A stretch of DNA of 62,152 nucleotides from a virus (Duplodnaviria; Caudoviricetes): positions 1 through 62,152 of IMG/VR virus record IMGVR_UViG_3300014501_000005; one strand, given 5' to 3'. Position 1 is the first letter of the stretch. Each line of letters opens with the position of its first letter. A model generated the notes under the pieces. The model was not told the origin of the DNA. It worked only from the letters and a program-made list of their open reading frames with translations, and ran no database searches. Both the position numbers and the translations under genes were made by a program. This document shows positions 3,101-59,589 of this stretch, one piece after another.

Positions 3101-3964
3101 GACTCCCCGTAACCGGGCAATCTCACCCGTTTGACTCTGAAGTTCTTGGGCCGGGATTATCGTGCGCGGCTGATCGGCCAGAGCAACGGCACTGGTCCCT
3201 TCGCCTTCTCTACGCGGTGCTAGATCGCCTGCTGCTAACGGCTTCGGAGCGACAACATCTGGCTTGTCGGGAGCGTGAGGGGCCTGTACCTGATCCGCAA
3301 AGGCCTGACCGGGGTCCTTAGTCGGAGTCGGGGCAGACGCAACAGGAACATTCGTAGCTTGCGCCCGGACTTGATTAAGTAGCGTTGAACGAACTTCACC
3401 GGGCAAATGTGCTAATCCAAGAAGTGAAAATCCTTCATTGATAGCGGCATCGGCGTAGTTACCGGCCTTAACCGCATCCAATGCGCCCTTCTGTTGCATT
3501 GCAACGAACAAAGCATTGGTTCCGGCCTTAAGGACGGGTGCAACTTCTCCAACACCACTCAACATAAACGGCCAGTTCATCGGATCAGCTATTATGCCGA
3601 TAGCTTGCTTTGTGGTATCCGCCCCAACGCCCGTTACGAAAGTCTTCGCTGCTGCTACTACTGGCGACTGCCCGATAGTTGGAGTAGCCTGCTGCTGTCT
3701 CCAGGTATCTAAAGCATTTGCTGCTGGATCAATAACATACTTATGGGAGGCTGACAAAACCGCATTCGCCGCGGACAACGCTTTTGGATAGGCTGTTCCA
3801 GTTAGATAATCAAGCGTACTAGACGGCTGGCTAGGGGACCCACTTTGAGGTGGGGCTGATTGAGCAACGGGCGCAGCTTTAACCGGAGCAATATCCGATT
3901 CGGAGTATTGGCCGATGGGCTTCGGGGGCGATATGTCTTCAAGCGAATATTGTCCAGTAGCCAT
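1..3964 (-). CDS. Giant internal virion/ejection protein, N-terminal part (continues across the junction; ~2,011 aa total)
   Basis: ATG at 3964 overlaps the upstream TAA (TAATG); begins MATGQYSLEDISPPKPIGQY. The frame was open wherever I translated it and reads ...GDEYVPMRRILE in frame with ORF 59958..62072. Missing from the ORF track because it runs off the window edge. Confidence 0.85.
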   Translation of the reverse strand, partial: MATGQYSLEDISPPKPIGQYSESDIAPVKAAPVAQSAPPQSGSPSQPSSTLDYLTGTAYPKALSAANAVLSASHKYVIDPAANALDTWRQQQATPTIGQSPVVAAAKTFVTGVGADTTKQAIGIIADPMNWPFMLSGVGEVAPVLKAGTNALFVAMQQKGALDAVKAGNYADAAINEGFSLLGLAHLPGEVRSTLLNQVRAQATNVPVASAPTPTKDPGQAFADQVQAPHAPDKPDVVAPKPLAAGDLAPRREGEGTSAVALADQPRTIIPAQELQSQTGEIARLRGVLQSQTALPEEKAYAQKALQASIDLRDQIEQPSTSQEKPSAPPIAPDASVKLTDARRAEISKLAQQAAAAKAQAIVAPERPKGLDSLTADQQDQAAQAVAPLRANQATATTPGDEPLRRMVEEAGGKWNGTDSAGMAHYEAPSDIVGARSAVPIASPVDKMSPDFVQSEFQRKASEFASPQPEQAPNQLSQLAAEARAKQQSLSPYVTASLSDAFNRLTKLKTDHDNATSDEQRTAIQADRDTQVARARDILRMQINNTHPDQLGVLRDNVLNAAKTYQDRADYINDRVKQWNNNIDNQKYVREQLATGGPVRAGIDPETGLSKPFKPTGPARTVRDILHEKMGEVPSSKPSDIIPNPTPKNLTDEQWSAFQDKLRKQITAKRAEIDEGFEIMRDSGGRIEDTDLLEKMKDLAVTENILGRYPEAPTGRRPKVATPAGTGELAKPAPLETMSLADANRIFGKTLRKIPDQSEFTQHASELAEQARLHRAMATAIDSKIGLKPVPRATEKGSVGMALERPLATQEETDPDKMLAVAKANGFNAYKVTDKKMAGMYGLLSHDGKTFIALGSGRDNTHGSLAEALLPQLKSTLHDDALTAMLQNGWIRKVTNNEYEAHILDSKQTNSIEMDQIVHGTHGQSTIVDTKDATGRVRALRLDAGWSTKYDNLSDALDAEKSRLRFPEQGAVKGSEIMGGMAAGMAIGGAVGGYPGMFVGGVLGATSPMLLRSTAIARAVQYTRNMRSTLDIPISAWFKAPPMDGAPVSPEMANILHDQQQSLKAPEAQLSWRQSLIGDMWKKLDPNAFVTDRPNPLQEWTMSQDPRGKGFRDAKGQLKLNESTYVAVRSAISGIRGSVGIARQQVSGIETDARASGLHTDTTQTLNLLGYKRTYEVVREHMAALTQETQQLKQQAAMSSDILEQAKLKDNVQKNMDALREMGDSIKNGKIVPGGYTEQTIQRDLSTIQQRHSPEDNAKIADYSKRYFAIQREALDLIADTNNGGKNSIITKEAYQTYTARGDEYVPMRRILETAADANKK

Positions 3965-5196
3965 TATTGAGCGTCGAATGACCCATCGGGATGCATTGCC
4001 GTAATTTTAACGGTCTTGTTATTCTTTAGTTGAATCGTGTCCCCGACTTTATGGGCGGGGGCTGAGGAAGCTGGCCCACCTGAAGTGGGTCCCTTCATTG
4101 CGTGATACTGTGCCCAACTAGGAACAGTGATGCCTTTAGCTTTCATACCTTCAGCGGTTTGACGATAATCGCTAATCATGGCATCGTGCGCTTCTTTGTT
4201 AGCTTGGTTCTTTGCGTTAGTATCCGCTTGATATTGTTGATATAACTTACCGCTATTGGCAAAGTCAAACCCAGGCGTCTGCATGTTATTGTCTTCCCAC
4301 TCTTTTTGGCTATTGGTTGGTATTGGGGCAAACTCCTTTTGAGCCATTTGAACTTCGGAATCGATATCAAGTTGGGGTTGTTTAGAGGCTTGTTCTGAGC
4401 CGGACTTCTGGCCCGCGAGTCCGCCTTGCATACCCTGAAAGTTCGCCCAGTCCTTTTTGGCAGAAGGATCGCCTTCCGCCATTCTACGAAGAATGCCAGA
4501 TGGGGTATAGTTTTCGTTAAGTTGCGCCGCCTTCTGACTACCGAGGTGTTGAGCAAATGAAGGTTGGTATCCAGACGGTACCGGCTCAAGAGGTTGTTGA
4601 GTGACCTTACCACTAACCGGATCAAATACGCTTTGCCATGCATGACCTTGGTCATCGACCATTCCGGAGCCAATTGGCTTAGAGGAGTCTCGTTGGTTCT
4701 TGAGCATTTCACTCTGCCAAAGTTGATTTTGATTATCTAGTTGAATTTCTCTACGTTGTTGATATTGTTGGGCTTCCTGCCGTTGGCCAATCTGCGCCAG
4801 CTCATCCTGCATCTTAATCTGAGGTTCAGCCATCTGATAAGGCAGCATTGCAGACTGCATCATCTGATTGCGACGATCCATCTGGTTGCCTTTTAGCCCT
4901 TGCATGACGGCTTGAATGTTAGAACCAATAGACATACCGCCCTGCCCCATATCAGCAACGGTATTGAAAGCGTTATCCACTACGCCCGCTATCCCCGGAT
5001 GATTCTGAGCCAGCCAACTGTTCTGGCTCATCGTTTGATAGGGGTTCTGGATACGCTGGACGGCCTGTTGATAGGGGGCTATGAGCTGTTGGAGCTGCTG
5101 GCTCGTGCTAGCTTGATTCCAACCCGGTTGTTGAGTCTGAGCCGGTTGAGCAGGAGCAGCCATACCGTTTTGAATAAATTGATCGAATTCTGACAT
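3964..5196 (-). CDS. Putative internal virion (DNA ejection) protein
   Basis: 410 aa, Q/A/M-rich, predicted helical; sits between the tail genes and the giant internal protein, as in podoviruses. Confidence 0.6.
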   Translation of the reverse strand: MSEFDQFIQNGMAAPAQPAQTQQPGWNQASTSQQLQQLIAPYQQAVQRIQNPYQTMSQNSWLAQNHPGIAGVVDNAFNTVADMGQGGMSIGSNIQAVMQGLKGNQMDRRNQMMQSAMLPYQMAEPQIKMQDELAQIGQRQEAQQYQQRREIQLDNQNQLWQSEMLKNQRDSSKPIGSGMVDDQGHAWQSVFDPVSGKVTQQPLEPVPSGYQPSFAQHLGSQKAAQLNENYTPSGILRRMAEGDPSAKKDWANFQGMQGGLAGQKSGSEQASKQPQLDIDSEVQMAQKEFAPIPTNSQKEWEDNNMQTPGFDFANSGKLYQQYQADTNAKNQANKEAHDAMISDYRQTAEGMKAKGITVPSWAQYHAMKGPTSGGPASSAPAHKVGDTIQLKNNKTVKITAMHPDGSFDAQ

Positions 5197-5198
5197 TT

Positions 5199-6976: not shown

Positions 6977-8742
6977 TAGATTCGATCCAAGGGCCAGACT
7001 TCAATACTCAAGCCCCCAAGGATAGTATCGGTGATTGCGCTGGAAGGAACGGACGTTGACGAGAGCGTAAAGCGATAGAACTTATCTTTCGCTAGCATGC
7101 CAGCTAGATAAACTTTGTATTCGTTAAACTGGGATAGCGTTAAAGGCGCAAGGGTGACAAGGTTGTTTGGAGTATTGAACGTATTAAACGTCGAAGCCCC
7201 ATCAACCGTCACAAGCATATTTGCATCTTCAGTTACAACTTCCATCTCATTGACTGTCTTGCGAACAGTCGCATCCCCAAGATCAAGCCATGTGGTTTGG
7301 ATCGTGGAGACAATACCTTCCTCGAATGTCTCGCCTTGTCGATCAAGCCATAGATCAGCTTCAAACACGCGCGTGATCCCCGCATTGTCACAGACTAAGA
7401 AGCGTGGAATACCGGCTAGGTTACAATAGTAAACTCCAGCGCTGAACAAATCTGCACACTTCCAAATGAACCATTTTCGGACATGCATATCGTATACGCA
7501 AACCGTGTCTGGAATCGTGTTGATGCCAGTGGGAATAAACAAGCAATACAGATTATACGGTCCGCTGCGAACCGAGATTGCCCATGAGTTCTTAGCGGCA
7601 GCGGCATTGATGTTGTTTAGGGTAGATTGAATAGTGGTCCCTACGTTCTGGAACGTGGTGAAGTCGCTGCCCAGAACTCGAAAGTCCGGTGTCATCCACA
7701 TGGTCCCAACCGGCGTTCCCTCAAGATAAACAACTTGCCACACATCCTGACATGCTAGCCCAGTGTCATTAAACACAATCTGCGGCAAAACGAAATTGGT
7801 TGGCCCATTACCTTGGAGCTGATAGATGTGAAGCTCAGTGCCGATGTACAGCGAGATGCCATCAGTCAACAGTCCACTGATAACTTCCGGCCCCGGCGCA
7901 ACCTCAAGGGCATTGGCCGCTGGCCAATCTTCTTCATAGCGCCCGGTGATGTTACCAGTAGAGGTGGTTGTCTCGGCTAAACTCTTACTGAATACTATCT
8001 GGCTTCCAAGAGCCATATAAATCCGCCCTTGGTTCGCAATAGGGAAGGACCCATTTGGAGGTGGAGTATTGAATAGCAATCCATGCGCCACGCCGCTAGT
8101 ATCGGTTTCTTGATATATGTTGTTGGTTAAAAGAGTTGCTTCGGGGGTGTTGTCTGTATAGGTGGTGGTCCCATTCGATACATCAGCAATGTGATATAGA
8201 ATAGTCGGATCACCACCATCTGCGGTTGCAAGGATAGCAACCATCGTTACTTGAGGATCGCTTGAGACTGGGATGTTTGTAAGTGGTTGATCGTTATTGG
8301 TAAGCGGACCTGTAGTTACCGAAGCTGGGCTTAGGTCGCTATAATTACCCGCTGCATCGAAGAACGCGGTATAGTAAATGCGGCCTGAGTTTAGGGTGAT
8401 GTTGCCAGCCCCCGGAGAGCCCAAGGTAACAGCGGTTGTCGGCGCAACAATGCCCCAGTTACTTAATCCAGTATCAAGGGTCCACTTCTTAAGATCAGCC
8501 GAAACCCCATCCTCGAAATACATATAATCCCGCGAGCAAACAGCGTATGGGCGGGTTGCTCCAGAGGATGGAGTAAAGATGGAGACTGGGTTGCCGCCAA
8601 GGTCCCAATAGAGAATGTTATTGGTCTCGGACATCACACCCGTTCCGTCAGCCGCCATCGCTATCGGCGTCCGCTCTTTATCATGGAGATCGAGATACAT
8701 ATCGATCTGTTGGGCTTTAATGAATGAGACTGGGGTTATCAT
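6976..8742 (-). CDS. Tail nozzle/tubular protein B-like, main body
   Basis: 588 aa, beta-propeller-like (GRIYMA, IVFS, LYIGTE, VCVYD...WF, IQTTWLDLGD...K); downstream of the adaptor. Confidence 0.65.
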   Translation of the reverse strand: MITPVSFIKAQQIDMYLDLHDKERTPIAMAADGTGVMSETNNILYWDLGGNPVSIFTPSSGATRPYAVCSRDYMYFEDGVSADLKKWTLDTGLSNWGIVAPTTAVTLGSPGAGNITLNSGRIYYTAFFDAAGNYSDLSPASVTTGPLTNNDQPLTNIPVSSDPQVTMVAILATADGGDPTILYHIADVSNGTTTYTDNTPEATLLTNNIYQETDTSGVAHGLLFNTPPPNGSFPIANQGRIYMALGSQIVFSKSLAETTTSTGNITGRYEEDWPAANALEVAPGPEVISGLLTDGISLYIGTELHIYQLQGNGPTNFVLPQIVFNDTGLACQDVWQVVYLEGTPVGTMWMTPDFRVLGSDFTTFQNVGTTIQSTLNNINAAAAKNSWAISVRSGPYNLYCLFIPTGINTIPDTVCVYDMHVRKWFIWKCADLFSAGVYYCNLAGIPRFLVCDNAGITRVFEADLWLDRQGETFEEGIVSTIQTTWLDLGDATVRKTVNEMEVVTEDANMLVTVDGASTFNTFNTPNNLVTLAPLTLSQFNEYKVYLAGMLAKDKFYRFTLSSTSVPSSAITDTILGGLSIEVWPLDRI

Positions 8743-12445: not shown

Positions 12446-12477
12446 TTGATCTCCGTTTGATCCCACCTGAAATGGGT

Positions 12478-12996
12478 CTATGCACTATCCCGACGAAGCC
12501 AGCCTTTGAGGAAGATTGCATCCTGAGGATGGCTTTCAACAATTGCTTTGTGATACTCTTCTGCCGCTGATATGATCTTAGGAAGCAGGGACCCACTTGA
12601 GGTGGAGTTAATGGCGATTATAGTCTGTGGGCCGAAGAACCCATCCGGATCGACATCAACCGCGATTTGAGCTATCTTATTTGCGTGAACCTTCCCGACG
12701 TTAACAGCCAGATCAAAAATCTTATTTGCAATAACCTGAGCATCGATCTCACCATATACCCAAAAGTTGGTTTGATAGAAACTAACAACCATACCCTGAA
12801 GGATAGAGTTAGTGTCAAGTGACTTAGGGAAGTTAGCGAGGCACTTTGCTAAGTCAATCCGCATCCAACCTTCCCACGCGCCCCAGTTGTTTCGGCTGAT
12901 ACCGCGATAGGTTTCACCGCCGCTGTCGAGGGGGTTGTTAACATAACCACCCTCCCAAAGCTCAGTGTTCGCAATCGCCGGTGGAAATAATGCCAT
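12478..12996 (-). CDS. Endolysin, glycoside hydrolase family 108 with PG-binding_3 C-terminus
   Basis: EGGYVNNPLDSGGETYRGIS catalytic motif, FDLAVNVG, DG.FGP.T, FLKGWLRR. Confidence 0.9.
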   Translation of the reverse strand: MALFPPAIANTELWEGGYVNNPLDSGGETYRGISRNNWGAWEGWMRIDLAKCLANFPKSLDTNSILQGMVVSFYQTNFWVYGEIDAQVIANKIFDLAVNVGKVHANKIAQIAVDVDPDGFFGPQTIIAINSTSSGSLLPKIISAAEEYHKAIVESHPQDAIFLKGWLRRDSA

Positions 12997-17470: not shown

Positions 17471-17725
17471 TTATTGAGGGTTCAGATCGTGTATTGCTTT
17501 CATGCGAGCTTTGAGGCCAGAAGAGTCGCTAACAGCTTGATTAAGAGTTCCAGTTATCGTTGAGCCTTGAGGATCGGCGCTATGAGATTGCGCAAAGGCA
17601 ACCCCAGCATCGTGACCGCCCATGGACCCACTAGAGGTGGCCATAGAGGGGCCAATGGTCTTGGCATGGGCTAGAGCGGCTTTAGCGGCAGCCAGCTTTG
17701 AAGCTACATCGTTCGGATCGGGCAT
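17471..17725 (-). CDS. Hypothetical protein
   Basis: Likely start MPDPNDVASKL right after the portal stop. Confidence 0.5.
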   Translation of the reverse strand: MPDPNDVASKLAAAKAALAHAKTIGPSMATSSGSMGGHDAGVAFAQSHSADPQGSTITGTLNQAVSDSSGLKARMKAIHDLNPQ

Positions 17726-17726: not shown

Positions 17727-19943
17727 TTATCCTGCTCCCATCGTGTTGCCGCCGTTTTGCTGACTAAAACCACGCAGATGATCGGCCATGTCCCCACCGG
17801 GAGTTTCCACATTCCCGGAGTGGTTCTGGTTACCTTCTTTACGCCCCGGAGCCTGAGCCAAAGTCTCAACCGGCACACCGGCTTGCGTCTGAAGGAATTC
17901 TTCTATTTCCTGTTGGACGGCCAGAGCGTGATCGGTAACCGAGTTAGGTTCCTTCTTCTTGAGGCCTTCAACAACCGCCTTGGACTCGAACTTCATCAGC
18001 TCTCGCAACACTTCTTGCTGGATCGCTGTCTGAGACTGTTGCATCACCTCTTGCTGGACCTGTTGATCGGACTTGAGCAAACGGTTCGCAAATGGAATCT
18101 CCATGCACTTTGCGATCTCGCGCAGGAATTCACCCTGAACTATATATGGTGATTGGCTGGCAATGTTGTAGAAAGCCATCATGTTGCGCTGCTTAACGAC
18201 CTTGCCGGTTGCATAGTTAGCAGCCACAAAGTCAAAGCTGTAATTGCCGATGATGTCTGAGAGCTTGATCTGCCCGTACTTCGGAATACCTGGAGGCGCG
18301 TTGGTGATGGAGTATTCCATCTCGTCTGTACCGAATTGCTGGATCATGCTTGCAACCATCTCACACATAGGCTGCAAAACTTCAAGTTCATAATCCCGGA
18401 TGAACAGCTTGAAAACGTATCCGCTTTCGTTGATAACTTGGGAGATACCGCTAGCAGTTCCGGATGCTTGGCCTTGACCAGCAGCCAGCTCACTAATCCC
18501 CGAAGACATCTCTATCATTCCGCGATAGAGATCGATGATTTGATAAGACTGCTGTGGCGGGACGAAGTTTGGTAGTGGATAGATGGCTTTGGAGGGATCA
18601 CCAACCACTCCAACCTTTCCACCCGGACAGTTCCCCATATCTAGTTGATCGTGATCTATATCTACCTGCACATCATACGCAAACCGTTGGTTGATGCCTA
18701 TGTTCCAATTGTCGGTTATCATGTTCGTAAACACGTTAACCGCTTCATTGAGATCGCTGATTTTTTCGATCAGCCCGATCCCATACACATCGCCCTTTAC
18801 CTTGATGTATGGACAGTCAAGGATCGGTATGCGTTTGTGAGCAAACGGATTAGGCCCCGTGTAAAGTAGAACAGGTGGTCCGTTATACACCCTACGCTTA
18901 TAAGCAGAATAAGAAGCGTTGCGATATTGATATCTCCTATCCTTCCATCCAATTGCATCCGCATCCTCCCCGAAGGTGCAAAGAGTTACTGTCTTGTCCG
19001 TATCATTCCAAAGCTCTGCCATACGGATGATGATGCCATCGCGATCAAGATCACGATACTGGCTTAGGCGACGAGTGAGTTCAGCAAGTGCTTCTGGGTA
19101 GTAAAGATCAGGATTCGATTCAGCCGCCCTGCGCATCTCGCCCCATGACGTTTCCATCACATGAGCTTTGATCTTTTCGTCAGGATCAATAAGCAAGTCA
19201 TATATGTCAATAGCTATAAACTTCGGGCAATTCCTCGGCACCCGCTTAGAGACCATCTTCTGCCCGAGAACAATGTTGTTTCCGTCCTGATCCTTCTGCG
19301 GAACCATTACTGGCTGACCCTTGCCGTCTTTCTTTGGCCCACCTGTAGAGGGGTCCATCACCGGCATCATCGCGAAAACTGGCTCCGGACCGTTTACAAC
19401 ATCATAATCCCAATCCCAATCGACCTTGATCCCAGCGTGTCCGTAGATTGCGATATCCCGAATCTGCATCTCAAGGAAGCGTGTCCAGCGTGCGCGTTTA
19501 AGGCAATCAAGAATCACGCACTGCATCTTCATTGCCGCGTCTTCGGAACCGCCCTTTGCTCTTACTTCGATCGGCGGATCGAGAGAGAAAAATGCATCAT
19601 GCACGCGCGAGACCACTGTTTCAGTGTTCGAAGAAGCATAGGGAACGAAAGTATTAGAGCGAGGGGTAAGATTATCAGGATACATACGGCGATCACGTTG
19701 GCCAATATACTGACGATAAAAGTATGCACGTCGTTGGTCATATGGCCTCCGGAAGTTCCGCAAGCGTTGAAGTTGGTCTAGCGTCCACTGTGTAAGCTGG
19801 CCTTTGTTAATATACGTAAGAGCCGCATCTGGATTGCGCCCAGTCTCTCCACCGCCCATTGCATCAATGGTCGATCCAGTACCTACACTTGTAGGTTGGG
19901 TATATTGAGCAACCGCCGCTTCACCTGTGATATCGTTGGCCAT
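17727..19943 (-). CDS. Portal protein
   Basis: 738 aa; RSNTFVP, IYG.A..KV.W, YG.G.IE...D, TASGI....N..., LQPM; P22/T7-like podovirus portal pattern. Confidence 0.85.
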   Translation of the reverse strand: MANDITGEAAVAQYTQPTSVGTGSTIDAMGGGETGRNPDAALTYINKGQLTQWTLDQLQRLRNFRRPYDQRRAYFYRQYIGQRDRRMYPDNLTPRSNTFVPYASSNTETVVSRVHDAFFSLDPPIEVRAKGGSEDAAMKMQCVILDCLKRARWTRFLEMQIRDIAIYGHAGIKVDWDWDYDVVNGPEPVFAMMPVMDPSTGGPKKDGKGQPVMVPQKDQDGNNIVLGQKMVSKRVPRNCPKFIAIDIYDLLIDPDEKIKAHVMETSWGEMRRAAESNPDLYYPEALAELTRRLSQYRDLDRDGIIIRMAELWNDTDKTVTLCTFGEDADAIGWKDRRYQYRNASYSAYKRRVYNGPPVLLYTGPNPFAHKRIPILDCPYIKVKGDVYGIGLIEKISDLNEAVNVFTNMITDNWNIGINQRFAYDVQVDIDHDQLDMGNCPGGKVGVVGDPSKAIYPLPNFVPPQQSYQIIDLYRGMIEMSSGISELAAGQGQASGTASGISQVINESGYVFKLFIRDYELEVLQPMCEMVASMIQQFGTDEMEYSITNAPPGIPKYGQIKLSDIIGNYSFDFVAANYATGKVVKQRNMMAFYNIASQSPYIVQGEFLREIAKCMEIPFANRLLKSDQQVQQEVMQQSQTAIQQEVLRELMKFESKAVVEGLKKKEPNSVTDHALAVQQEIEEFLQTQAGVPVETLAQAPGRKEGNQNHSGNVETPGGDMADHLRGFSQQNGGNTMGAG

Positions 19944-28987: not shown

Positions 28988-28988
28988 T

Positions 28989-34232: not shown

Positions 34233-34440
34233 GCTTCAATACGGGCGATTATTCCACCTAAAGAGGGTCTATAGTCGCTCGAATGAAGTTTATTTTGGAG
34301 GATTATGACAGACAAATCACTGGTTGTGTGGACCATTGTTATCTTTGGCGTAAGTACAATAGTTGCAATTTTGCTTTATGCGGCGATTGGTTATGCTATT
34401 GTTCATTTTATTACTAAACTTTGGTAAATTGGAGGTTACA

Positions 34441-36066: not shown

Positions 36067-36089
36067 TGGACCCATTAGGAGGTGGATTT

Positions 36090-39868: not shown

Positions 39869-40296
39869 AGCCAGCTAAGTTGTTTGTTTACGGTATCTTA
39901 AAGCGCGGGTATAGCCTTGATCTTGGGCAATTCCCTGAAACTTCATTCACCGGGGAAGCGTTTCTTCAAGGCGCACAGCTTCATGCAATTGGGAGTGGGG
40001 TTGGATTGAGGTTTGTCCTAGACCCATTGGAGGTGGCTCACGGGGAGGTTTGGGCGATTCCGGATAGCATGTGGGACTATCTCGATGAGATTGAGAGCAA
40101 TGGGAGGGTTTATACGCGCAAGATTGTGGATGTGAAACAGGAGTTTGCTACTGGGCCTGATTATGGCGGTGAAACACACACAGTCAAAGTATGGGTATAT
40201 GCTCATACCATGCTTGCTACTCAAGCGGAGTATGATAAGCATTATCCGAAAATTGAAGATGGGAGGTATGTTGGCTATGAGAAAACTCAAATTTAA
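39865..40296 (+). CDS. Gamma-glutamylcyclotransferase (AIG2-like)
   Basis: LFVYG.LKRG, GEVW, LDEIE...Y.R, WVY. Confidence 0.88.
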   Translation: MKPAKLFVYGILKRGYSLDLGQFPETSFTGEAFLQGAQLHAIGSGVGLRFVLDPLEVAHGEVWAIPDSMWDYLDEIESNGRVYTRKIVDVKQEFATGPDYGGETHTVKVWVYAHTMLATQAEYDKHYPKIEDGRYVGYEKTQI

Positions 40297-40680: not shown

Positions 40681-41003
40681 TCCACCTGAAAAGGGTCACT
40701 TAGACATTGGCGTACTGTAACTGACACGCCAATTTCGATAGCACCTCCCAAGGGTGCGGTCGATTAGCTCGCAAGGGGAAGCCTGCATTAGTGCAGCCAG
40801 TACCTGCTTACCGGACAATCGACAACCGGAGTCGATGAGCGAAAATAAACGTCCGAAGCACAATTGGGGGCGGAGGGTAGTTGAGACTTTTTAGCCCCCT
40901 TTAAATTTCTTTGGAGGATGATATGTTCTGGAGAGTATATCTAGCGCTTTTAGGTATGGCGCTGTTTGGGTTTGGGGCTGGATTCCTTATTGGGAGAATG
41001 TAA

Positions 41004-46298: not shown

Positions 46299-46384
46299 CG
46301 AGGGGGCGGTTTTGGGCGTTATTGGGATTCCGATTGGATGTATTGTGGATGTTAAGAGACTATAGACCCTTTGGAGGTGGGCGA

Positions 46385-47925: not shown

Positions 47926-48479
47926 CGGTCTTACTCTATTCAGATAGCCACTTAAACCACGCTCAAATTGCGACATATTGCGATAGACCAAAAGGGTTTA
48001 CGGACACCATCATCAAACGTTGGAATGAACGAGTTACAGATATGGATACCGTTATACATCTCGGCGATGTGGCTATTGGGCCAAGGCCATTAGTCGAGGC
48101 CCAAATCCGGCATCTACGCGGCAAGAAAATTCTTGTTCGCGGGAACCATGACAAGTCAAGTTGTAGTTGGTGGATGGATCATGGGTTTGATTTTGCGTGT
48201 GATAGCATTCTTTATAATCGATGCTTGCTAACACATCATCCATATACTCACAAGTGCGCTGAGTGGGATTTGAACATTCACGGTCATCTACATAACATAT
48301 GGGATAAGCCCACGCCCGCTGAGAACCAAAAGGAGTTTGTTTTACATAACAAGCTTCATAATAATTGGCAGAGGTTGTTTGCCTGTGAATATACAAACTA
48401 CTATCCCATTGAGTTTCAAGAGTTTATAGAACACCCAGACAAGTACCAGTCTATGGGACCCATTAGAGGTGGGCAATGA
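47922..48479 (+). CDS. Calcineurin-like metallophosphoesterase
   Basis: SDSH..H, HLGD, GNHD, H.P, NIHGHLH. Confidence 0.88.
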   Translation: MTVLLYSDSHLNHAQIATYCDRPKGFTDTIIKRWNERVTDMDTVIHLGDVAIGPRPLVEAQIRHLRGKKILVRGNHDKSSCSWWMDHGFDFACDSILYNRCLLTHHPYTHKCAEWDLNIHGHLHNIWDKPTPAENQKEFVLHNKLHNNWQRLFACEYTNYYPIEFQEFIEHPDKYQSMGPIRGGQ

Positions 48480-49043
48480 GGCGAATATTGAGGTTCATTC
48501 TCTTAAAGGTTATTGCTTTTCTTTACTGGTTAGATAGTAAAATGCCAAATCCCGGCAATCTAGGAAGCGATATCTATAGTTGGCTCGAAAGGCATCACAT
48601 GTGTTGCTCAATACATGGATGGAAAGGAAAAGACTAATGATCGAATATCCGAAGGAGTTTTTGGAGGATTTGAATGTGGCGCTATTGCAATACCGGGCAG
48701 ACTATAATATGAGTCCTATGCCCATCCTCGACGTTATTCACAACTTTGTAAACGGGAAGTATGGGCCAGTTAACAAAAACGATATGTATGCACGTAAAGG
48801 AGAATAGCAATGCAAATAGTAGCAATACCGGCAGCGAAGTACCATGTATTGAATGACAGCGGGGAATTGGTTGGGGTAATCAAACAAAAGACACATGAGC
48901 ATATCTGCATCCCGCGTAAAGTATTGAATGCAACCGAAGCTTACTTCATTGCTAAAAATCTATGGAGACTAGATAAGACGTTTGACCTTAGATAATTCCC
49001 ACCTAACAATGGGTCCCTCCAAATCTAACCTAAGGAAATATCA

Positions 49044-49965: not shown

Positions 49966-50048
49966 AAATAAATCTCCTTTAGATTGAACCACTTAGCAAA
50001 AGTGAAGGTCTGTTTTTGTATGTGGTTACAAACAAACGAGATAAAAAA

Positions 50049-50083: not shown

Positions 50084-50084
50084 T

Positions 50085-53266: not shown

Positions 53267-55690
53267 CTGAAAGTCATCGAATGCGATGCTTGTTCTGGAT
53301 GCCGGATGCGGGAGCTTTATCCGGATAACACTTTTATTCCACCTGCAAAGGGTCCCTCATTACGTTTGATTGTCGGGGAGGCCCCAGGTGAAGATGAAGC
53401 TCGCGAAGGTAAACCCTTCGTCGGTTCAAGTGGGAGGGTTCTTGATTCACTATTCCGGAAAGCGGGAGTTCAACGTGACCAACTTACTGTTACAAACACT
53501 CTTAGCTGCCGTCCTCCTAACAATATATACCCGACAGATGAAAAGGCCCGTGCGTATTGTACTGCCAGTGAAGGACAAGCTATACAGAAGCACTGCTATA
53601 AGAATCATGTTCTACCGCTCCTTGCTTCCAGACCTTGGGAACGAATTGATGCGATAGGAGCGCATGCTCTTGAGGTATTGACGGACAAATCGGGGATTAT
53701 GAAGTGGCGCGGATGCCCCTTACCATTGAAAGATGAAGATCGTCCACGTGTAATGCCAACACTCCATCCGTCATACCTCATGCGCGACCAAAGCATGATC
53801 CCGGCAGTCATCAGTGACTTGCAAAAGGGCATCCAAGTTCCACCTCAGCATTATAATCTTCAACCAACTCTTGAGGAGCTAGAAGCTTTTGATCCAACGT
53901 TCTTGTGCATGGATATCGAAACGAATCGATTTACCAACCAGATTACTATGGTCGGTATTGCTAATCGGCCCTACCACGTCTTGGTGGTCCCATTTCGTGG
54001 TGCTTATATCGGGCAACTCAAGCGGATATTTAGTGGTGCCAAAGAAATCGTTGGTCAAAATCTCATTCAGTTTGATCTCAGAGTTCTCGAAGAAAACTCG
54101 ATCATCATAAATAAGGATGTACAGATATGGGATATAATGCTTATCCACCATTTACTGCATCCAGACGAGGCCCATGACCTTGAATACATTGCTTCAATCT
54201 ATACGCAGATGGTTGCTTGGAAGCATCTTAAACATCAGGATATGGCATGGTACAATGCCTGCGATGTGGACGCCACCATTCAAATCTTCCGAGCGATGCT
54301 ACCTGTCCTTCGGCAACAAAAGCTTTTGGATTTGTATAAGCTCGTACAGGTCCCTTTAGCGAAAATATGCGCTCTTATGGCCGACACGGGCCTGAAGGTT
54401 GATCCCAACCGCATCCACCTCGCACGTAAACAGTTCGAGGGAGAGTTAACAGAGTTAGAGGCAACACTTCCGAAGGAGTTGAGACCGTATGATAAAGTTA
54501 TCCGTGTCCGAGAGAAGGCACCTGAAGGCACTTTGGGAAAAGCTGGAAAGCCAATCAAGTTCATTCATGTACCCGGCATCGAACGAGTCGTTCCTTGGGA
54601 TTCCCCTAAGCAAGTTGAACGATACCTTTACGAGACTCTTGGGCTCACAAAACAGCTTCATGCCAAAACGAAGAAAATCACGAGCGACAAAACCGCGTTA
54701 GAGAAACTTTATCGTCAAACAAAGAATCCAGCTATCGACGCTATTAGGAGGGTCAGACAACTTGGAGAACTTATTGGAACTTTTCTCAAGGATGAAACTG
54801 AAGACAAACAGGTTGCTGTGGGACGAATACATTCTAACTTCTTGGTACATGGCACGAACACCGGAAGACTGTCTAGCAGTGGCCCCAATCTACAAAACAT
54901 CCCTCCGAAAGCACGTTATATATACGTCCCATCCCATTCTGACTGGTGTTTTGTGGAAGCTGATTTTAGTTCTTTGGAAAATCGCCTTGCTATGTGGTAT
55001 GCAAATGACACTGAAAGAATGGAGCGACTCTCCGATCCCAACTTCGACGAGCACAGATGGTTTACTGCTCAAGTTTACAACATCCCGGAATCAGAAGTAA
55101 CAAGCGAACTCCGAAAGAAAGGCAAGATCGCAAACCATGGATGCGATGGAGGGTTAGGTCCACGTAAGCTAGCAACCACCCATTCCATCCCAGAAAAGGA
55201 AGCCCGTGAACTTATCCTCAAGTGGAGGCAGATCAATCACAAAAGCGCGAAGTGGCAAGAGGAAATTGGCAATCAAGCGCAGAACAAAGGCATTCTTACC
55301 AACGCCTTTGGCCGTAAACGTTGGTTCTGGTCGCACTCAGCGTATACTGAAGGCATTAGGTTCCTTCCTCAATCAACTGGAGCAGACATATGTTTCCGGG
55401 CAATGGTAGGTTTGTTTTATGAACGGATAGGTTGGCCGCTTGAATTAGCATTACAAGCATCACCAATATGTAAACCAATCCCGCGACCGGCTAGATTAGT
55501 ATTGCAAGTGCATGATAGCATTCTTATTGAATGTCCTCAAGCACAAGTCCCCGAAGTGGCAACCTGCCTTAAAACTGTAATGGAACAACCATGGGCCGAG
55601 TTAGCTGGGTTCTCAATTCCTGCTGAGGTTAAAGTAGGCGAACCATCCGCGAGCTGGGCCGAACTTCAATCCTACAAAGAGGGAAAATGA
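53267..55690 (+). CDS. Uracil-DNA glycosylase (family 4)-DNA polymerase A fusion; likely CTG start
   Basis: UDG: CxxC, VGEAPG..E, PFVG.SG, CRPP.N, HPS. Exo: DIET, N..FD, YN..D. Pol: TGRLSS..PNLQNIP, ADFS.LE.R, QVHDS. Confidence 0.9.
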   Translation: MKVIECDACSGCRMRELYPDNTFIPPAKGPSLRLIVGEAPGEDEAREGKPFVGSSGRVLDSLFRKAGVQRDQLTVTNTLSCRPPNNIYPTDEKARAYCTASEGQAIQKHCYKNHVLPLLASRPWERIDAIGAHALEVLTDKSGIMKWRGCPLPLKDEDRPRVMPTLHPSYLMRDQSMIPAVISDLQKGIQVPPQHYNLQPTLEELEAFDPTFLCMDIETNRFTNQITMVGIANRPYHVLVVPFRGAYIGQLKRIFSGAKEIVGQNLIQFDLRVLEENSIIINKDVQIWDIMLIHHLLHPDEAHDLEYIASIYTQMVAWKHLKHQDMAWYNACDVDATIQIFRAMLPVLRQQKLLDLYKLVQVPLAKICALMADTGLKVDPNRIHLARKQFEGELTELEATLPKELRPYDKVIRVREKAPEGTLGKAGKPIKFIHVPGIERVVPWDSPKQVERYLYETLGLTKQLHAKTKKITSDKTALEKLYRQTKNPAIDAIRRVRQLGELIGTFLKDETEDKQVAVGRIHSNFLVHGTNTGRLSSSGPNLQNIPPKARYIYVPSHSDWCFVEADFSSLENRLAMWYANDTERMERLSDPNFDEHRWFTAQVYNIPESEVTSELRKKGKIANHGCDGGLGPRKLATTHSIPEKEARELILKWRQINHKSAKWQEEIGNQAQNKGILTNAFGRKRWFWSHSAYTEGIRFLPQSTGADICFRAMVGLFYERIGWPLELALQASPICKPIPRPARLVLQVHDSILIECPQAQVPEVATCLKTVMEQPWAELAGFSIPAEVKVGEPSASWAELQSYKEGK

Positions 55691-57536: not shown

Positions 57537-58101
57537 CGTTGGGATTGATGTGGACGGCGTTTTGGCCGCATTCACCCACGCCGCTCGGCAGACCATGAAG
57601 AAACTCTTCGCCGGTCGCCCGGATGATTTACTTGTTCAGACTACATGGGCGTTTGAATCGCTTGGCATCACCGCTGAGGAAGAGCGTATATTCTGGCGTC
57701 ATGTGGATAACGAACCGAATTGGTGGTTGACGTTGAAAGCGTTGCCATTCACTTTTACACTTCCCGAGCTAGTTGCCAACCATCGATGTGTGTTCATTAC
57801 TAATCGCAAGGATGGAGCTGGCTTACCAATCGAGCAACAGACATCCAGTTGGCTCCGGGCGCACTTCGGGCTTCGGGAACCGACGGTTGTAATTAGCAAC
57901 AACAAGGGACCTGTTGCAGTTGGATTGAAGCTAGATTACTTCATTGATGATCGCCCAAAGAATGTGTCGGAAGTTATAAACTGTTCAAGTACCCGCGTTT
58001 TTCTCTGTGACGCCACCTATAATGCGTCCTATGACGACGCTCAACGAGTAGCTAACTTCGACCAATTCGCAAAGATCATTATAAGGAGAGCTAATGGCTG
58101 A
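57520..58101 (+). CDS. HAD-family 5'(3')-deoxyribonucleotidase (NT5C-like)
   Basis: IDVDGVLA, FITNR, T..WL, K, FIDD.P.N. Confidence 0.85.
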   Translation: MAKRYSVGIDVDGVLAAFTHAARQTMKKLFAGRPDDLLVQTTWAFESLGITAEEERIFWRHVDNEPNWWLTLKALPFTFTLPELVANHRCVFITNRKDGAGLPIEQQTSSWLRAHFGLREPTVVISNNKGPVAVGLKLDYFIDDRPKNVSEVINCSSTRVFLCDATYNASYDDAQRVANFDQFAKIIIRRANG

Positions 58102-58468: not shown

Positions 58469-58919
58469 TCCGAAAGACCGTAAGGGACTGCCGATTGTGA
58501 CAGGAGTTCTTGACTACTTTCCACTTGCATTAGCTGAGGTTGCCAAGGTCTCAGTCATCGGCAACAACCAACACAATCCAGGACAGCCCTTACACTGGGC
58601 AAAAGAGAAGTCAACCGATCATGCGGATTGCATTGGTCGGCATCTGGTTCAGCGCGGGACCATTGACACTGATGGCGCACGGCACTCGGCTAAACTTGCG
58701 TGGCGGGCGTTAGCTAATCTTGAGATCGAGCTGGAGCAAGTGGAAAAACAAGAGCCACAATCCGATAAGGACTGTGGCAAGATCGATCACTATAAGTTTA
58801 AGGACCCCTGTCCTCAATGTGAGGAGGGACCCTCTGCAGGTGGAGGTGCATACAATGACCCAGCTAACTTATATTCACCGGACATCATTATCACCGCTAA
58901 GAAAGCACTTGGCTATTAA
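58452..58919 (+). CDS. DUF5664 dATP/dGTP diphosphohydrolase-like protein
   Basis: K.P...L.YFP.AL.EVA.VS..G..H, W, D...RHL, D.DG..H.A..AWRALA. Confidence 0.75.
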   Translation: MMLPSDPKDRKGLPIVTGVLDYFPLALAEVAKVSVIGNNQHNPGQPLHWAKEKSTDHADCIGRHLVQRGTIDTDGARHSAKLAWRALANLEIELEQVEKQEPQSDKDCGKIDHYKFKDPCPQCEEGPSAGGGAYNDPANLYSPDIIITAKKALGY

Positions 58920-59574
58920 ATGCTTCTGATTCCGCTAGCAGCGCTTCTTCTAATTGTTCTGCTGTTAGCACTGGCGCTTCATCCGTAAAGGCAGCCTTGA
59001 GTTCTGGATAAGCCTTCTCAATGATCTTCCACCAGAGCCCTTGCATTGCTTGGCGAAAGACCGAGACATCCACAAGCCATTCGAGGTTAGCGGCTAATGC
59101 AGCTTCCCTCAGCGTCGCATACAGCCAACGTCCATGAAGTGTACCGTCATGGGGTTCGCCGGATATTTCTTCGAGTATCCACTTTCTAAAGCGCACGTCA
59201 GCCACTTCAAGAAGCCGTTTGAGATCATCAAGTCTCAGGCGGCTTTTTGTTGTATGGAGAACAACATGACCATCTGGCTTAACGGGGTTAAACAGTGGAA
59301 GTTCACAGTCTTCTATCATCCACTTAAAGAAGTTTCTAACACATCGAAGCTCTATCTCTATTGTAGACCTATTGACACCCGCGCGTATCCGACTGATACG
59401 GTAATCGGCTATGTCTGTGATAGTGAAGGATTCGATGCCAAGGTTATTTGGAAAGAAGGACAGGAACCGTTCGAGATGCGTATCAACAAAGTAAAAGCGT
59501 TCCCGCCCATAGAGCTTGAGAACGAAGCTCTCGTAGCGACCGAGCCAAACTCGAATGTTGTATTTGATAGCCAC
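58897..59574 (-). CDS. Degenerate tyrosine-recombinase-like DNA-binding protein
   Basis: Core-binding domain (T..DI..Y...R......STI..EL..VR.FF.W...NPV) is intact; catalytic R, HxxR, H/W and Y are not recognisable. Confidence 0.7.
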   Translation of the reverse strand: MAIKYNIRVWLGRYESFVLKLYGRERFYFVDTHLERFLSFFPNNLGIESFTITDIADYRISRIRAGVNRSTIEIELRCVRNFFKWMIEDCELPLFNPVKPDGHVVLHTTKSRLRLDDLKRLLEVADVRFRKWILEEISGEPHDGTLHGRWLYATLREAALAANLEWLVDVSVFRQAMQGLWWKIIEKAYPELKAAFTDEAPVLTAEQLEEALLAESEAFNSQVLS

Positions 59575-59589
59575 CTTGAAATGGGTCCC

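Follow-up and report, generated by a model that had tools for sequence, protein, structure and literature searches.

The genome of a 62-kb phage from cold soil, labelled G000 in all cross-genome comparisons, carries 21 copies of a DNA element, A-D-G-GACCC-W-Y-T-N2/3-A-GGTGG-V, which spans about 20 bp, is oriented and is under selection; each strand bears its own regular series of these sites, about one per 4-7 kb. This strand-alternating arrangement is a new finding. Comparison with related genomes shows that the motif is a trait of a whole uncultured phage family and that its sequence has diverged between lineages. We tentatively propose, with somewhat less than even confidence, that the copies are polar sites for protein binding arranged as an array, with the protein encoded at 58897-59574 as the leading candidate for the binder. 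The window, that is, the whole stretch of DNA analysed (62,152 nucleotides), is a complete virus record.

Copy number and consensus

GACCC-N5/6-AGGTGG has 19 exact matches in the window, whereas 100 dinucleotide-preserving shuffles gave a chance expectation of 0.09 and a largest value of 1. All 19 were reproduced at the coordinates and on the strands listed by the initial annotation, and its CGGTGG variant at 43931(-) is real, but its total of 20 missed a second one-mismatch variant at 58013-58028(-) (GACGC...AGGTGG), so that there are 21 copies, 11 on the plus and 10 on the minus strand. In the codon-preserving check that had been suggested, the called ORFs were shuffled 300 times among synonymous codons, which brought the count down to a mean of 5.8 and a maximum of 7, well below the 19 observed; the roughly six surviving copies are taken to be those outside the shuffled ORFs. 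The genome has a 123-bp terminal repeat, and the largest gap between sites, counted across this repeat, is 6295 bp, in agreement with the earlier figure of about 6.3 kb. The copies are located as follows:

3837..3853, plus: motif copy GACCCACTTTGAGGTGG, antisense, 111 nt into the 5' end of the giant gene
4076..4091, minus: motif copy, sense, 112 nt short of the end of the 410-aa gene 3964-5196
8048..8064, plus: motif copy, antisense in gene 6976-8742, coding PPPNGS
12463..12478, minus: motif copy, sense, at a gene junction, over the endolysin stop codon and 17 nt 5' of the ATG at 12445
12590..12605, plus: motif copy, antisense in the endolysin gene 12478-12996
17625..17640, plus: motif copy, located between 17460 and the end of the portal gene (17727), antisense relative to the minus-strand block
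19339..19355, minus: motif copy, sense in the portal gene, coding DPSTGG; specific to G000
24641..24656, plus: motif copy, antisense in the 145-aa gene 24422-24859
28981..28996, plus: motif copy, antisense, where genes 28989-29330 and 28361-29023 (histidine phosphatase) meet
34254..34269, minus: motif copy, intergenic, where the plus-strand (early) block begins; antisense to that block
36069..36085, plus: motif copy, sense; GGAGGTGG is the ribosome-binding site, 4 nt 5' of ATG 36090 (SLOG-domain protein)
40021..40036, plus: motif copy, sense in the GGACT-like gene 39865-40296
40682..40697, minus: motif copy, antisense, 2 nt past the end of gene 40426-40680
43931..43946, minus: variant copy GACCCATTTTCGGTGG, antisense in the amidotransferase gene 43015-44118
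46365..46380, plus: motif copy, sense, intergenic; GGAGGTGG lies 4 nt 5' of ATG 46385 (exonuclease)
48457..48472, plus: motif copy, sense, at the phosphoesterase gene end, 3 nt 5' of ATG 48476
48999..49015, minus: motif copy, antisense, about 180 nt 5' of the sigma-like gene 49192-49908
53339..53354, minus: motif copy, antisense, within DNA polymerase codons 12-17
58013..58028, minus: variant copy GACGCATTATAGGTGG, antisense in the 5'-nucleotidase gene 57505-58101
58828..58843, plus: motif copy, in the 3' part of a dATP/dGTP diphosphohydrolase-like gene, 54 nt past the stop codon of the recombinase-like gene
59571..59587, minus: motif copy, over the start codon (GTG, 59574-59572) of the recombinase-like gene

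Convergent pairs are formed by the copies at 3837 and 4076 (239 bp, centred on the gene junction at 3964), 40021 and 40682 (661 bp), 48457 and 48999 (542 bp), and 58828 and 59571 (743 bp), and a divergent pair by those at 12463 and 12590 (127 bp). On the minus strand, the spacer of the 28981 copy holds the stop/start overlap TAAAATG. The portal, endolysin, polymerase and GGACT-like genes do contain copies as reported, but the gene called a nozzle could not be upheld as such, the sole match of gene 6976-8742 being a weak one to an 'internal virion protein' family. Strain variation touches several sites: a divergent strain (two runs) retains the 40021 copy despite differing in the next 23 nt, strain SNPs at 48454 and 48473 lie on either side of an unchanged 48457 copy, and in a strain variant 36067-36546 is replaced or absent, from the 36069 copy onward.

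Among the 19 exact copies the spacer measures 5 nt in 13 and 6 nt in 6, and zero copies with spacers of 0-4 or 7-11 nt occur in the window. The W-Y-T constraint described for the spacer is real, with A/T in 20/21, T/C in 21/21 and T in 20/21 copies. Outside the blocks, A is found at -3 in 14/21 and G at -1 in 16/21, and T at +1 in 0/21, while the two or three internal positions are unconstrained in all motif classes. The ACC/GGT pseudo-palindrome is present, but the local fold is weak (mean -4.4 vs -2.9 kcal/mol shuffled, sd 2.05), and no Rfam family matches the element.

Conservation in related phages and selection on nucleotides

The same or a co-evolved motif was found in 14 of the 18 related genomes examined, with 7-20 copies each; this check had been recommended, and its outcome strengthens the original proposal of a dedicated site system independent of strand and frame. 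The class A form, GACCC-N3-9-GGTGG, occurs in 15-20 copies in G001 and G003-G005, 8 copies in the 41-kb fragment G002 and 17 in G011. G007 carries ACCCCTTTTTAGGTAGG (10 copies), G008-G010, G019 and G027 carry ACCCCGTTYT-NN-GCGAGGA (7-17 copies), and G017 carries CGCCGGGACA (class D, 10 copies). Within class A the distance from GACCC to GGTGG ranges from 3 to 9 nt, mostly 5-7, and the base before GGTGG varies among close relatives (A, G or T); the ACCC block is common to classes A, B and C.

Alignments show that selection on the nucleotides, not on the encoded proteins, keeps the motif, as the initial annotation had argued, since orthologous sites persist while codons, frame or amino acids change. 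The antisense site in the 5' part of the polymerase gene is at the orthologous place in four of six class A genomes (G000, G001, G003, G004); in G001 its nucleotides are kept in a shifted register (IHPKTGP vs IPPAKGP), and in G005 the amino acids PPQIGP are retained with the motif absent. Similarly, the 8048 site has an orthologous copy in G002 and G003, and G001 retains PPNGS through other codons with the motif absent. At the portal site 19339, all five aligned class A relatives have Gln where G000 has Gly, and it is this Gly that completes GGTGG. Copies also occur in the 12590 neighbourhood in G003 and G005, and 41-90 nt from the 24641 site, in the orthologous gene, in G003, G004 and G005.

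The lineage-specific classes bear on whether a host factor might read the site, for example as a Chi-like signal taming the host helicase-nuclease from either direction, in which case the motif classes would mirror different hosts. Polar signals needed in two directions at limited spacing would yield two balanced regular series; moreover, the E. coli Chi sequence is GCTGGTGG, with GGTGG as its 3' end, and the exact octamer lies within one G001 copy. However, known Chi sequences are 5-8 contiguous bases, whereas the present motif has two blocks with 11-17 fixed bases in all and a spacer of variable length, and the base before GGTGG differs even among close relatives, which makes this explanation quite improbable.

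Arrangement on the two strands

The 194 sites in 14 genomes form 183 pairs of neighbours, of which 147 have one member on each strand, and no same-strand neighbours are less than 2.1 kb apart. In ten genomes with 153 sites, same-strand pairs under 2 kb number 0, against 35.9 under random placement and 24.3 under strand shuffles, and opposite-strand pairs under 1 kb number 32, against 19.8 and 16.8, respectively. The per-strand gap CV in ten genomes (0.44 vs 0.84) was reached in 0 of 2000 simulations, and strand counts are more balanced than under binomial sampling (fraction 0.0052). The earlier description 'evenly spread' holds for each strand of G000 taken alone (CV 0.47 vs 0.88, fraction 0.0006), whereas all its sites pooled are only mildly regular (0.65 vs 0.94 under random placement). 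Since each strand has a separate regular series, neighbours mostly alternate in strand, and the mention of several close inverted pairs was thus correct but understated, as close neighbours are always on opposite strands, the closest being 72-239 bp apart. Convergent pairs are tighter than divergent pairs (median gap 1412 vs 3572 bp, MWU p = 3.5e-6, 14 genomes; 48 vs 17 pairs under 2 kb); a typical convergent pair spans 0.1-2 kb, and the stretches between pairs are typically 2-6 kb.

The initial annotation had named four mechanisms and picked none: loading sites for an injected protein, priming sites, nicks, and a repressor or organiser site. The distribution is a poor fit to T5-type nicking, in which single strands would be cut at the copies in a programmed manner, as is the case in T5, phiKMV-like phages and tf, but here on both strands. 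The phiKMV-type consensus is likewise bipartite with a free 5-nt spacer (CGACxxxxxCCTA/CTCCGG), tf has 14 nick sites, positions are similar among related phages, and co-evolution of nickase and site has been proposed, according to the cited account (PMC3517423); the asymmetric consensus, size and copy number of the present motif are similar to the tf and phiKMV-type sites described there, and an HNH endonuclease gene (52593-53090) lies just upstream of the polymerase gene. In the T5-like, phiKMV-like and tf phages covered by that account, however, all sites are on a single strand (PMC3517423), against 11 on plus and 10 on minus, alternating, in the present phage; opposite-strand copies as near to each other as 72-239 bp would presumably weaken virion DNA. 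Furthermore, the HNH gene is not a core gene, having homologues in only two of ten relatives and being absent from a strain variant (joint 52430-53120), and the class A recombinase-like protein is without the catalytic Tyr. Taken together, nicking appears improbable.

Site orientation is independent of transcription: 9 of the 21 copies are sense and 12 antisense to the two gene blocks of G000, 6 of 10 in its structural block point against the genes, and 81 of 153 are antisense in ten genomes. The earlier contention that the orientation does not follow transcription, unlike that of L5 stoperators, is therefore supported. The copies could conceivably serve as promoters, used either by the phage sigma-like factor (49192-49908) or by a phage RNA polymerase that escaped recognition. 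T7-type promoters are conserved asymmetric elements with lineage-specific variants, as is this element of about 20 bp, a sigma-like gene is encoded, and the layout of the class B motif resembles the T3 promoter in outline. But half of the copies oppose the genes, many lie deep within long genes, no single-subunit RNA polymerase was recognised in the 50 ORFs scanned, and a block spacing of 5-6 nt misfits -35/-10 geometry, so that a promoter role deserves very little credence.

A role in RNA, as a translation-initiation or mRNA-processing element or as arms of long-range stems between sense and antisense copies, is disfavoured and highly improbable. AGGTGG, GGAGGTGG and GCGAGGA do resemble ribosome-binding sites, three G000 copies lie 3-4 nt 5' of a start codon, as do several in each relative, and close copies, being invariably inverted, could pair. 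Against these points stand the antisense copies in the counts given above, which are as concentrated at gene junctions as the sense ones (19 vs 16, interval -40 to +10). In addition, partner copies are no more similar than non-partners (0.674 vs 0.674) and show no matching in spacer sequence or length for mutual base pairing. Because partners are unmatched, the fold is weak, Rfam gives no match and the internal positions are free, recognition by a protein is favoured over base pairing.

Priming sites would account just as well for the regular spacing on each strand. The copies would then be strand-specific start sites of DNA synthesis, where a primase or initiator reads the single-stranded complement and starts a pppACCC primer; such starts would require a site on each strand every few kb, and both strands are indeed equally served over the whole genome, each by its own regular series and without redundant close same-strand sites. 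The complement of the invariant G-ACCC is 5'-GGGTC-3', given in the cited source as an extended T7 primase recognition site, including the cryptic C, with the primer pppACCC (PMC2910064), and ACCC is the block common to classes A, B and C. Among the 50 scanned G000 ORFs no primase catalytic domain was recognised, the helicase at 56017-56760 matching only the helicase half of primase-helicase families; this may give room for such a way of priming, but also leaves no primase among those ORFs to do it. DnaG-type primases, as described in the same source, recognise a trinucleotide (PMC2910064), in contrast to the approximately 17 fixed bases here, and classes B and C have A or G ahead of ACCC, a block that class D is without. 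Priming likewise offers no account of the excess of short convergent pairs or of a copy on the recombinase-like gene start in two motif classes, and we regard it as unlikely.

A candidate binding protein

58897..59574, minus: candidate binder, 225-aa tyrosine-recombinase-like protein; its gene closes the minus-strand block, following the giant polyvalent-protein gene

This protein, which the initial annotation had named for testing, is the best candidate for the motif binder, and its sequence suggests a catalytically dead relative of tyrosine recombinases: a SAM-like core-binding domain at the N terminus is combined with a decayed catalytic domain that lacks the active-site Tyr. The protein is homologous along its length to true recombinases with PF00589, a domain retained in the G007 (7e-20) and G017 (2e-26) forms and found in none of six class A forms; class B forms are reduced to a core-binding domain of roughly 110 aa. 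As PF00589 is lost in class A and only the core-binding domain is left in class B, DNA binding is the common part. The family is present in all nine complete array-bearing genomes, and also in G006, G013 and G015, in which the array was not found, and it is the gene family most often located inside convergent pairs (4 genomes).

A motif lies over or directly before the start of the gene in five of the nine genomes with the long protein form: 0-9 nt before or over it in G000, G001, G002 and G007, and directly upstream in G011. This corresponds to four of seven class A genomes and one of one in class C, despite class-specific motif sequences. The adjacency is missing in class A genomes G003, G004 and G005 and in all five of class B, and the closest copy in G017 lies about 240 nt upstream. 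A single inherited event may underlie all four class A cases, which would leave about two independent observations. Identity of the protein among G001-G006 is 26-35%, compared with 49-85% for portal, capsid and terminase, and such strong divergence would be expected of a specificity-determining protein. Foldseek similarity to recombinases is weak (best E-value 0.024, none reaching 0.001), and the C-terminal half of the predicted structure has low confidence. The 3-9 nt spacer range of class A is loose for a rigid clamp, and class B combines the longest, most conserved motif with the small N-terminal domain only, so that one two-domain protein cannot explain every class. A further point against the binding-site reading is that sites are 2.6-fold enriched within 30 nt of gene boundaries (45/194), although they may merely settle at the places of least cost.

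Proposed mode of action

For the array of polar binding sites, we envisage that a single phage protein molecule would occupy each copy on double-stranded DNA and contact it through two parts, one reading GACCC and the other AGGTGG across a T-rich linker of slightly variable length; the best candidate would be the 225-aa protein of 58897-59574, as a tyrosine-recombinase descendant stripped of catalytic residues. On an asymmetric site, the bound protein would show a different face to tracking machines arriving from either side, and because the sites alternate in orientation, the array would act in both directions. It might thus provide polar barriers or markers for a strand-tracking machine, possibly RNA polymerase, a helicase or replisome, or an exonuclease or translocase. 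By analogy, stoperators, Ter sites and XerD sites may have a comparable mode of action. In L5-type phages, as outlined in the source cited, an asymmetric site present at more than 20 places is read by a monomer that has two DNA-binding domains (PMC9283540), and XerD bound at dif-like sites is described as unloading Smc-ScpAB (PMC11840125).

An oriented motif dispersed over the G000 genome

The window is a whole IMG/VR virus record of 62,152 bp, classed as complete with direct terminal repeats, and the terminal 123 bp at its two ends are identical. The genes of this phage genome (G000) are arranged in two blocks, one per strand, with the following main features.

32296 to 1, continuing 62029 to 58897, minus strand: block with large terminase, portal, tail fibre and endolysin genes
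13746-14768: capsid gene, read as such from its position and conservation
3964 to 1, then 62029 to 59958, minus strand: giant gene crossing the record ends, about 2011 codons by arithmetic, with the polyvalent-protein domain LPD38
58897-59574, minus strand: gene of a 225-aa tyrosine-recombinase-like protein, the candidate binder
33600-58919, plus strand: block with family-A DNA polymerase, helicase, exonuclease, Sak4-like annealing protein, HNH endonuclease and sigma-like protein, and also amidoligase, amidotransferase, ATP-grasp and nucleotide metabolism genes

No tRNA genes were found in G000, and no integrase was recognised among the 50 ORFs scanned. A megablast search with 25 kb returned no cultured relative, and tblastn with the portal protein gave two weak cyanophage matches at 22-26% identity. 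The public runs holding G000 sequence, all of them available as contigs, are labelled as permafrost and peat metagenomes, with no RNA runs among those listed. The giant gene passes through the 123-bp terminal repeat and has LPD38 in its C-terminal part; giant genes of 4.0-6.5 kb occupy the same place in related phages, with little sequence similarity between the motif classes tabulated below. Also, a strong positive GC skew (0.13-0.27) at 32000-52000 is confined to the plus-strand early block, and the structural block has nearly none.

The 19 exact copies of GACCC-N5/6-AGGTGG reported in the initial annotation were recovered, against an expectation of 0.09, with spacers of 5 nt in 13 copies, 6 nt in six and no other length. 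The total of 20 given there, which included a CGGTGG variant, proved one short, as one-mismatch variants stand at 43931- and 58013- (start and strand) and the latter had been missed; G000 thus carries 21 copies, 11 on the plus and 10 on the minus strand. The W-Y-T described after GACCC was found again, and the consensus extends further outward than had been noticed, with A at -3 in 14 of the 21 copies, G at -1 in 16 and T never at +1. GACCC is present in 20 of the 21 and A precedes GGTGG in the same number; about 17 positions are constrained, the second block AGGTGG included. Synonymous-codon shuffling of the ORFs, a control proposed with that annotation, reduced the 19 copies to a mean of 5.8, a residue taken to be the copies outside the shuffled ORFs. 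An origin by chance or composition is rejected on both the expected count and the shuffles.

Conservation in related phages and selection on DNA

A search with the portal protein yielded 71 related loci, and 17 related records were examined in full. The strict G000 pattern is rare in these uncultured phage genomes (six copies in G002, one in G001 and none in eight others), and they carry motif versions of their own.

Motif versions in genomes related to G000, with copies per genome
Class A (which includes G000); GACCC-N3-9-GGTGG; G001 15, G002 8, G003 20, G004 20, G005 16, G011 17
Class B; ACCCCGTTYT-NN-GCGAGGA; G008 17, G009 12, G010 15, G019 7, G027 7
Class C; ACCCCTTTTTAGGTAGG; G007 10
Class D; CGCCGGGACA; G017 10

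The conservation for which the initial annotation had suggested looking is thus present, as the same or an altered motif in 7-20 copies per genome in 13 relatives. No array was found in G006, G012, G013 and G015, of which two are fragments and in which a weaker motif could escape detection. Searching viral contigs for a 14-base version of the motif gave, among the matches listed, single scattered ones only. That the copies are a signal read by the host, such as a Chi-like one, which would be over-represented and oriented in the host chromosome, is, in our view, very improbable.

A copy lying antisense in the polymerase gene (codons 12-17) is common to G000, G001, G003 and G004 at the orthologous position. 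In G001 its nucleotides are held in a shifted register, so that the amino acids differ, and in G005 the amino acids are kept and the motif is absent. Similarly, G001 encodes the PPNGS of the site at 8048 from other codons and lacks the motif there, and the portal copy places Gly in G000 where five of five class A relatives in the alignment have Gln. Contigs from other samples carry SNPs at 48454 and 48473 (among the 40 listed of 255 differences) that bracket one copy and leave it intact, and a divergent strain retains the copy at 40021 despite differing in the next 23 nt. A by-product of protein coding is rejected, because the copies fall in varied frames and strands and relatives either conserve the protein sequence where the motif is absent or conserve the motif over a changed protein sequence. 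The initial annotation had argued for selection on the nucleotide sequence, and the persistence of orthologous sites in a changed register, together with amino acids kept without the motif, bears this out; on the evidence of these alignments, selection on the motif is at the DNA level.

Orientation and spacing of the copies

The copies obey a layout rule. No same-strand pair closer than 2 kb occurs in the first ten genomes (153 sites), against 35.9 such pairs for random placement and 24.3 for strand shuffles, and 32 pairs on opposite strands lie less than 1 kb apart, where 19.8 and 16.8, respectively, are expected. The CV of within-strand gaps in these genomes is 0.44 versus 0.84, which was matched in none of 2000 simulations. 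When the set is extended to 14 genomes and 194 sites, 147 of 183 neighbouring pairs are on opposite strands (binomial p = 4e-17), and the smallest gap between same-strand neighbours is 2092 bp. Convergent neighbours lie at a median gap of 1412 bp, 48 of them below 2 kb, and divergent neighbours at 3572 bp, with 17 below 2 kb (MWU p = 3.5e-6). Strand counts are balanced in all 14 genomes, beyond chance (fraction 0.0052). In G000 taken alone, the per-strand CV is 0.47 versus 0.88 (fraction 0.0006), and the two closest copies on one strand are 1558 bp apart (fraction 0.0024). In G017, the alternation is strict at nine of nine steps with the 10-mer, and the looser 8-mer core adds one same-strand pair, 317 bp apart. 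The rule holds in 14 genomes despite motif sequences that have diverged beyond recognition.

With respect to genes, nine copies in G000 are sense and 12 antisense, which upholds the contrast with mycobacteriophage L5 stoperators drawn at first sight, and the ten genomes have 72 sense and 81 antisense copies among the 153. Called ORFs contain 108 of the 153, the other 45 being intergenic or at ORF edges. Gene starts are nonetheless preferred over random positions, as 45 of 194 sites (23%), in both orientations, lie within 30 nt of one, against 8.8% (2.6-fold), and the sense copies at 36069, 46365 and 48457 in G000 double as ribosome-binding sites. Given that orientation is independent of transcription, the array is not, as it stands, explained by promoters, translation signals or L5-type stoperators. 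T7-like phage promoters would be co-directional with the genes and accompanied by a phage single-subunit RNA polymerase, none of which was found among the ORFs scanned, and we give promoters hardly any credence.

A function in RNA can be judged from folding as well. The local hairpins of the G000 copies are about 0.7 sd more stable than those of shuffled sequences, and the motif has no match to Rfam families at gathering thresholds. Partner copies are no more alike than non-partners, and their variable positions do not match, for which reason long-range pairing of partners is rejected. Taken together, the lack of likeness between partners, the weak local fold and the absence of an Rfam match make base pairing an unlikely object of selection, and RNA roles of any kind, translation signals among them, seem to us extremely improbable. 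This leaves a process in which each asymmetric copy is read by itself and which requires service in both directions at limited distances. The per-strand series, the alternation and the close convergent pairs point to a direction-sensitive process that needs service on both strands.

A recombinase relative as candidate binder

The 225-aa protein matches integrase families weakly (phrog_1 at 1.6e-7), a word-based protein search with it gave no matches, and locus searches from its alignment or from single proteins yielded nothing beyond the query's own record. A profile of eight homologues nevertheless collected 6269 relatives at E<=1e-3, 68 of them at E<=1e-30. The relatives of 290-340 aa, which have PF00589 and align across nearly the whole profile (positions 7-229), are true recombinases. 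In the class A proteins of the alignment, the central catalytic region is missing and Phe or Leu stands opposite the catalytic Tyr (Phe in G000), and PF00589 is detected in none of six, the G000 protein included. The domain is still detected in the proteins of G007 and G017; that of G006 is truncated, and that of class B is a core-binding domain only, of about 110 aa. The AlphaFold model of the 225-aa protein is confident for residues 1-100 only, and the best Foldseek matches of this predicted model are DNA-bound recombinases and isolated core-binding domains (lambda Int, Tn1549 Int, IntI and XerA at the top), at weak E-values of 0.02-0.2. By its SAM-like core-binding and catalytic-domain homology, the protein is assigned to the tyrosine recombinase superfamily.

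The gene always comes after the giant gene, and its product is among the fastest-diverging of the shared genes. A motif copy lies over or directly before the gene start in G000, G001, G002 and G011 of class A and in G007 of class C, despite the difference in motif sequence between these classes, and an inverted copy lies downstream of the gene in G000, G001, G003, G005 and G011. Against the candidate, adjacency of a copy to the gene start is absent from G003-G005, class B and G017, and phylogenetic profiling also places the family in three genomes without a found array. A full integrase of G007 (phrog_1, 2.7e-63) at L223:16893-18143, adjoining its recombinase-like gene, makes at least one member of the phage family look temperate.

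We tentatively favour, at somewhat less than an even chance, the reading that the copies form an array of polar sites bound by a protein, the candidate for which is this recombinase relative. The ACCC block common to classes A-C would be read by one part of that protein, and the purine block by another part or, in class B, by another factor; the array would then work from both sides on a machine that tracks along a strand. We infer the steps from a selected oriented site to its binding by the 225-aa protein and on to a polar barrier. If this is true, the candidate binder would exemplify a tyrosine recombinase domesticated for DNA binding alone.

Comparison with known site systems

To our knowledge, few phages carry oriented sites in a genome-wide array; the known cases are the stoperators and the nick sites of T5, phiKMV and tf. 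From each of these came a new mode of control or a still unsolved puzzle. The present array is of this known kind, dispersed oriented sites in phage genomes, and its layout rule and candidate binder are new; we found the rule described for neither stoperators nor nick-site phages, and the literature searched held no earlier description of these motifs or of a dead recombinase at a dispersed array.

The stoperators of Cluster A phages (L5 gp71, TipsytheTRex repressor) are described as more than 20 short asymmetric sites across the genome, each read by one repressor monomer whose two DNA-binding domains occupy adjacent major grooves, a design proposed to enable the evolution of other immune specificities (PMC9283540). 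The 21 copies in 62 kb resemble them in number and dispersal, and the change of site sequence between lineages recalls the other specificities proposed there. In the same description, stoperators lie in promoters and short intergenic spaces and their orientation correlates with the direction of transcription (PMC9283540), whereas here 81 of 153 sites are antisense, 108 of 153 are inside called ORFs, orientation alternates and per-strand spacing is regular. Also, the stoperator binder is a monomeric HTH immunity repressor of a temperate phage, in contrast to the candidate binder here, a recombinase relative in a genome with no integrase recognised among the 50 ORFs scanned.

The localized single-strand interruptions in T5, phiKMV-like phages and tf are reported to have an asymmetric consensus in about 4-14 copies, at positions partly conserved among relatives and with a function long unexplained, and the phiKMV-type consensus is bipartite with a free 5-nt spacer (PMC3517423). 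The motif shares the asymmetric bipartite form, the free spacer and the partial conservation of positions with these systems as described. The T5-like, phiKMV-like and tf sites are, however, described as lying on one strand only (PMC3517423); the copies here use both strands equally and in alternation, and we regard nicking as quite improbable.

Strand-specific priming explains the per-strand spacing as well as polar sites would. T7 primase is described as reading 5'-GTC-3' with a cryptic C, extended to GGGTC, and as making the primer pppACCC (PMC2910064). The complement of GACCC is this GGGTC, cryptic C included, and both strands carry sites in each case. No ZBD-TOPRIM primase was recognised among the 50 G000 ORFs with PHROGs and/or Pfam, and the helicase at 56017-56760 matches the helicase half only. 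The identity with the T7 site and the absence of a recognisable primase speak for priming. The T7 site, however, comprises 3-5 bases in that account and is read by a ZBD-TOPRIM primase, and the length of the motif, with about 17 constrained bases, counts against priming, as do class D and the bias towards convergent pairs; we hold priming to be unlikely. If true, it would explain lagging-strand starts in a phage group without a recognisable primase. Either way, with priming or with polar binding sites, the family supplies site and protein variants that form a natural series for the study of how DNA-recognition specificity evolves.

A recombination site such as lox, dif or an att core consists of two inverted arms around a crossover region of 6-8 bp, and one motif copy is about the size of one such arm. 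Although the candidate protein is homologous to PF00589 recombinases, each copy is a single asymmetric arm, and the distance to the closest inverted partner is 127 bp in G000 and 72 bp in G017, the shortest in any genome; the layout given for dif is 11-6-11 (PMC11840125). The motif departs from a tyrosine-recombinase recombination site in that the copies are single units and the G000 protein lacks R-K-H-R-H/W-Y competence. A parallel is XerD, a tyrosine-recombinase family protein that binds specific sites without recombining them, as the candidate here would, and that at dif-like XDS sites acts on the DNA-tracking Smc-ScpAB (Karaboja et al., 2021, as cited in PMC11840125). XDS sites cluster in the bacterial terminus, whereas the present array spans the whole phage genome in alternation, and the class A protein, in contrast to XerD, has lost catalytic residues.

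Tus-Ter and CTCF boundary pairs are asymmetric bound sites that act according to the direction of approach, and inverted pairs of them form two-way boundaries. We know of such polar barriers in cellular chromosomes and of none in a phage, and their resemblance to the array is one of layout only. It can be speculated, as an idea that we consider doubtful, that in a family of uncultured soil phages a small Xer-like tyrosine recombinase became a sequence-specific boundary protein devoid of catalysis, with about 20 single-arm sites of alternating orientation that partition the genome into domains a few kb long and halt or mark, in both directions, a machine tracking along a strand. The forms of the protein would then run from intact, to catalytically dead, to a core-binding domain alone, and the machine could be RNA polymerase, the replisome or a helicase, a host nuclease or an SMC-type translocase. 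In viruses, such a system would correspond to Ter or CTCF-type polar barriers, and its protein and site would co-evolve in the manner of immunity systems.

Further observations on gene content

A group of genes (37690-45120, plus strand; 39865-40296; 36090-36494) encodes two COOH-NH2 ligase-like proteins, a class II amidotransferase, a RimK-like ATP-grasp protein, a GGACT/gamma-glutamyl cyclotransferase-like protein and SLOG (YAcAr). This cluster, which may be a peptide- or nucleotide-modifying system, is mostly conserved across the phage family. Four plus-strand genes encode a dATP/dGTP diphosphohydrolase N-terminal domain (PF18909), a deoxy-5'-nucleotidase (NT5C) and two metallophosphoesterases (58443-58919, 57505-58101, 56763-57536 and 47922-48479), which hints at nucleotide-pool remodelling. 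PF18909 is a domain known from 2-aminoadenine phages, but no PurZ-like gene was recognised among the G000 ORFs scanned. The N-terminus of the polymerase (53306-55690, plus strand) has a GEAPG...E...PFVG stretch, conserved in relatives, which we take to resemble family-4 uracil-DNA glycosylase. The product of 49192-49908 (plus strand) is sigma-70 region-2-like, weakly in G000 and at 1.8e-11 against a phage sigma family in the G001 homologue.

Contigs from another sample join 52430 to 53120, with the HNH endonuclease gene skipped or replaced, and 36066 to 36547, where the SLOG gene is skipped or replaced from a point exactly at a motif copy; both joints look like strain variation in gene presence. 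A histidine-phosphatase gene (28361-29023, minus strand; PF00300, 2e-30) stands beside the terminase gene among the packaging and structural genes. It is conserved in each of the ten relatives compared, and in three genomes of class B it lies between the two copies of a convergent pair.

Repeats with a 6-nt period are over-represented in some relatives (ACTCC-N1-ACTCC, 26 in G001 and 12 in G003; CGACC-N1-CGACC, 25 in G010; loci L199-L202, L206-L208 and L233-L236) and are probably tandem repeats within a gene. In G006 and G015 (L217-L220 and L260-L262), both without a found array, long G/C homopolymers and hairpin-like GGGG-N8-CCCC dyads are over-represented, and G006 is enriched in the word GTTA-N2-TGTA / TTAATGTA.
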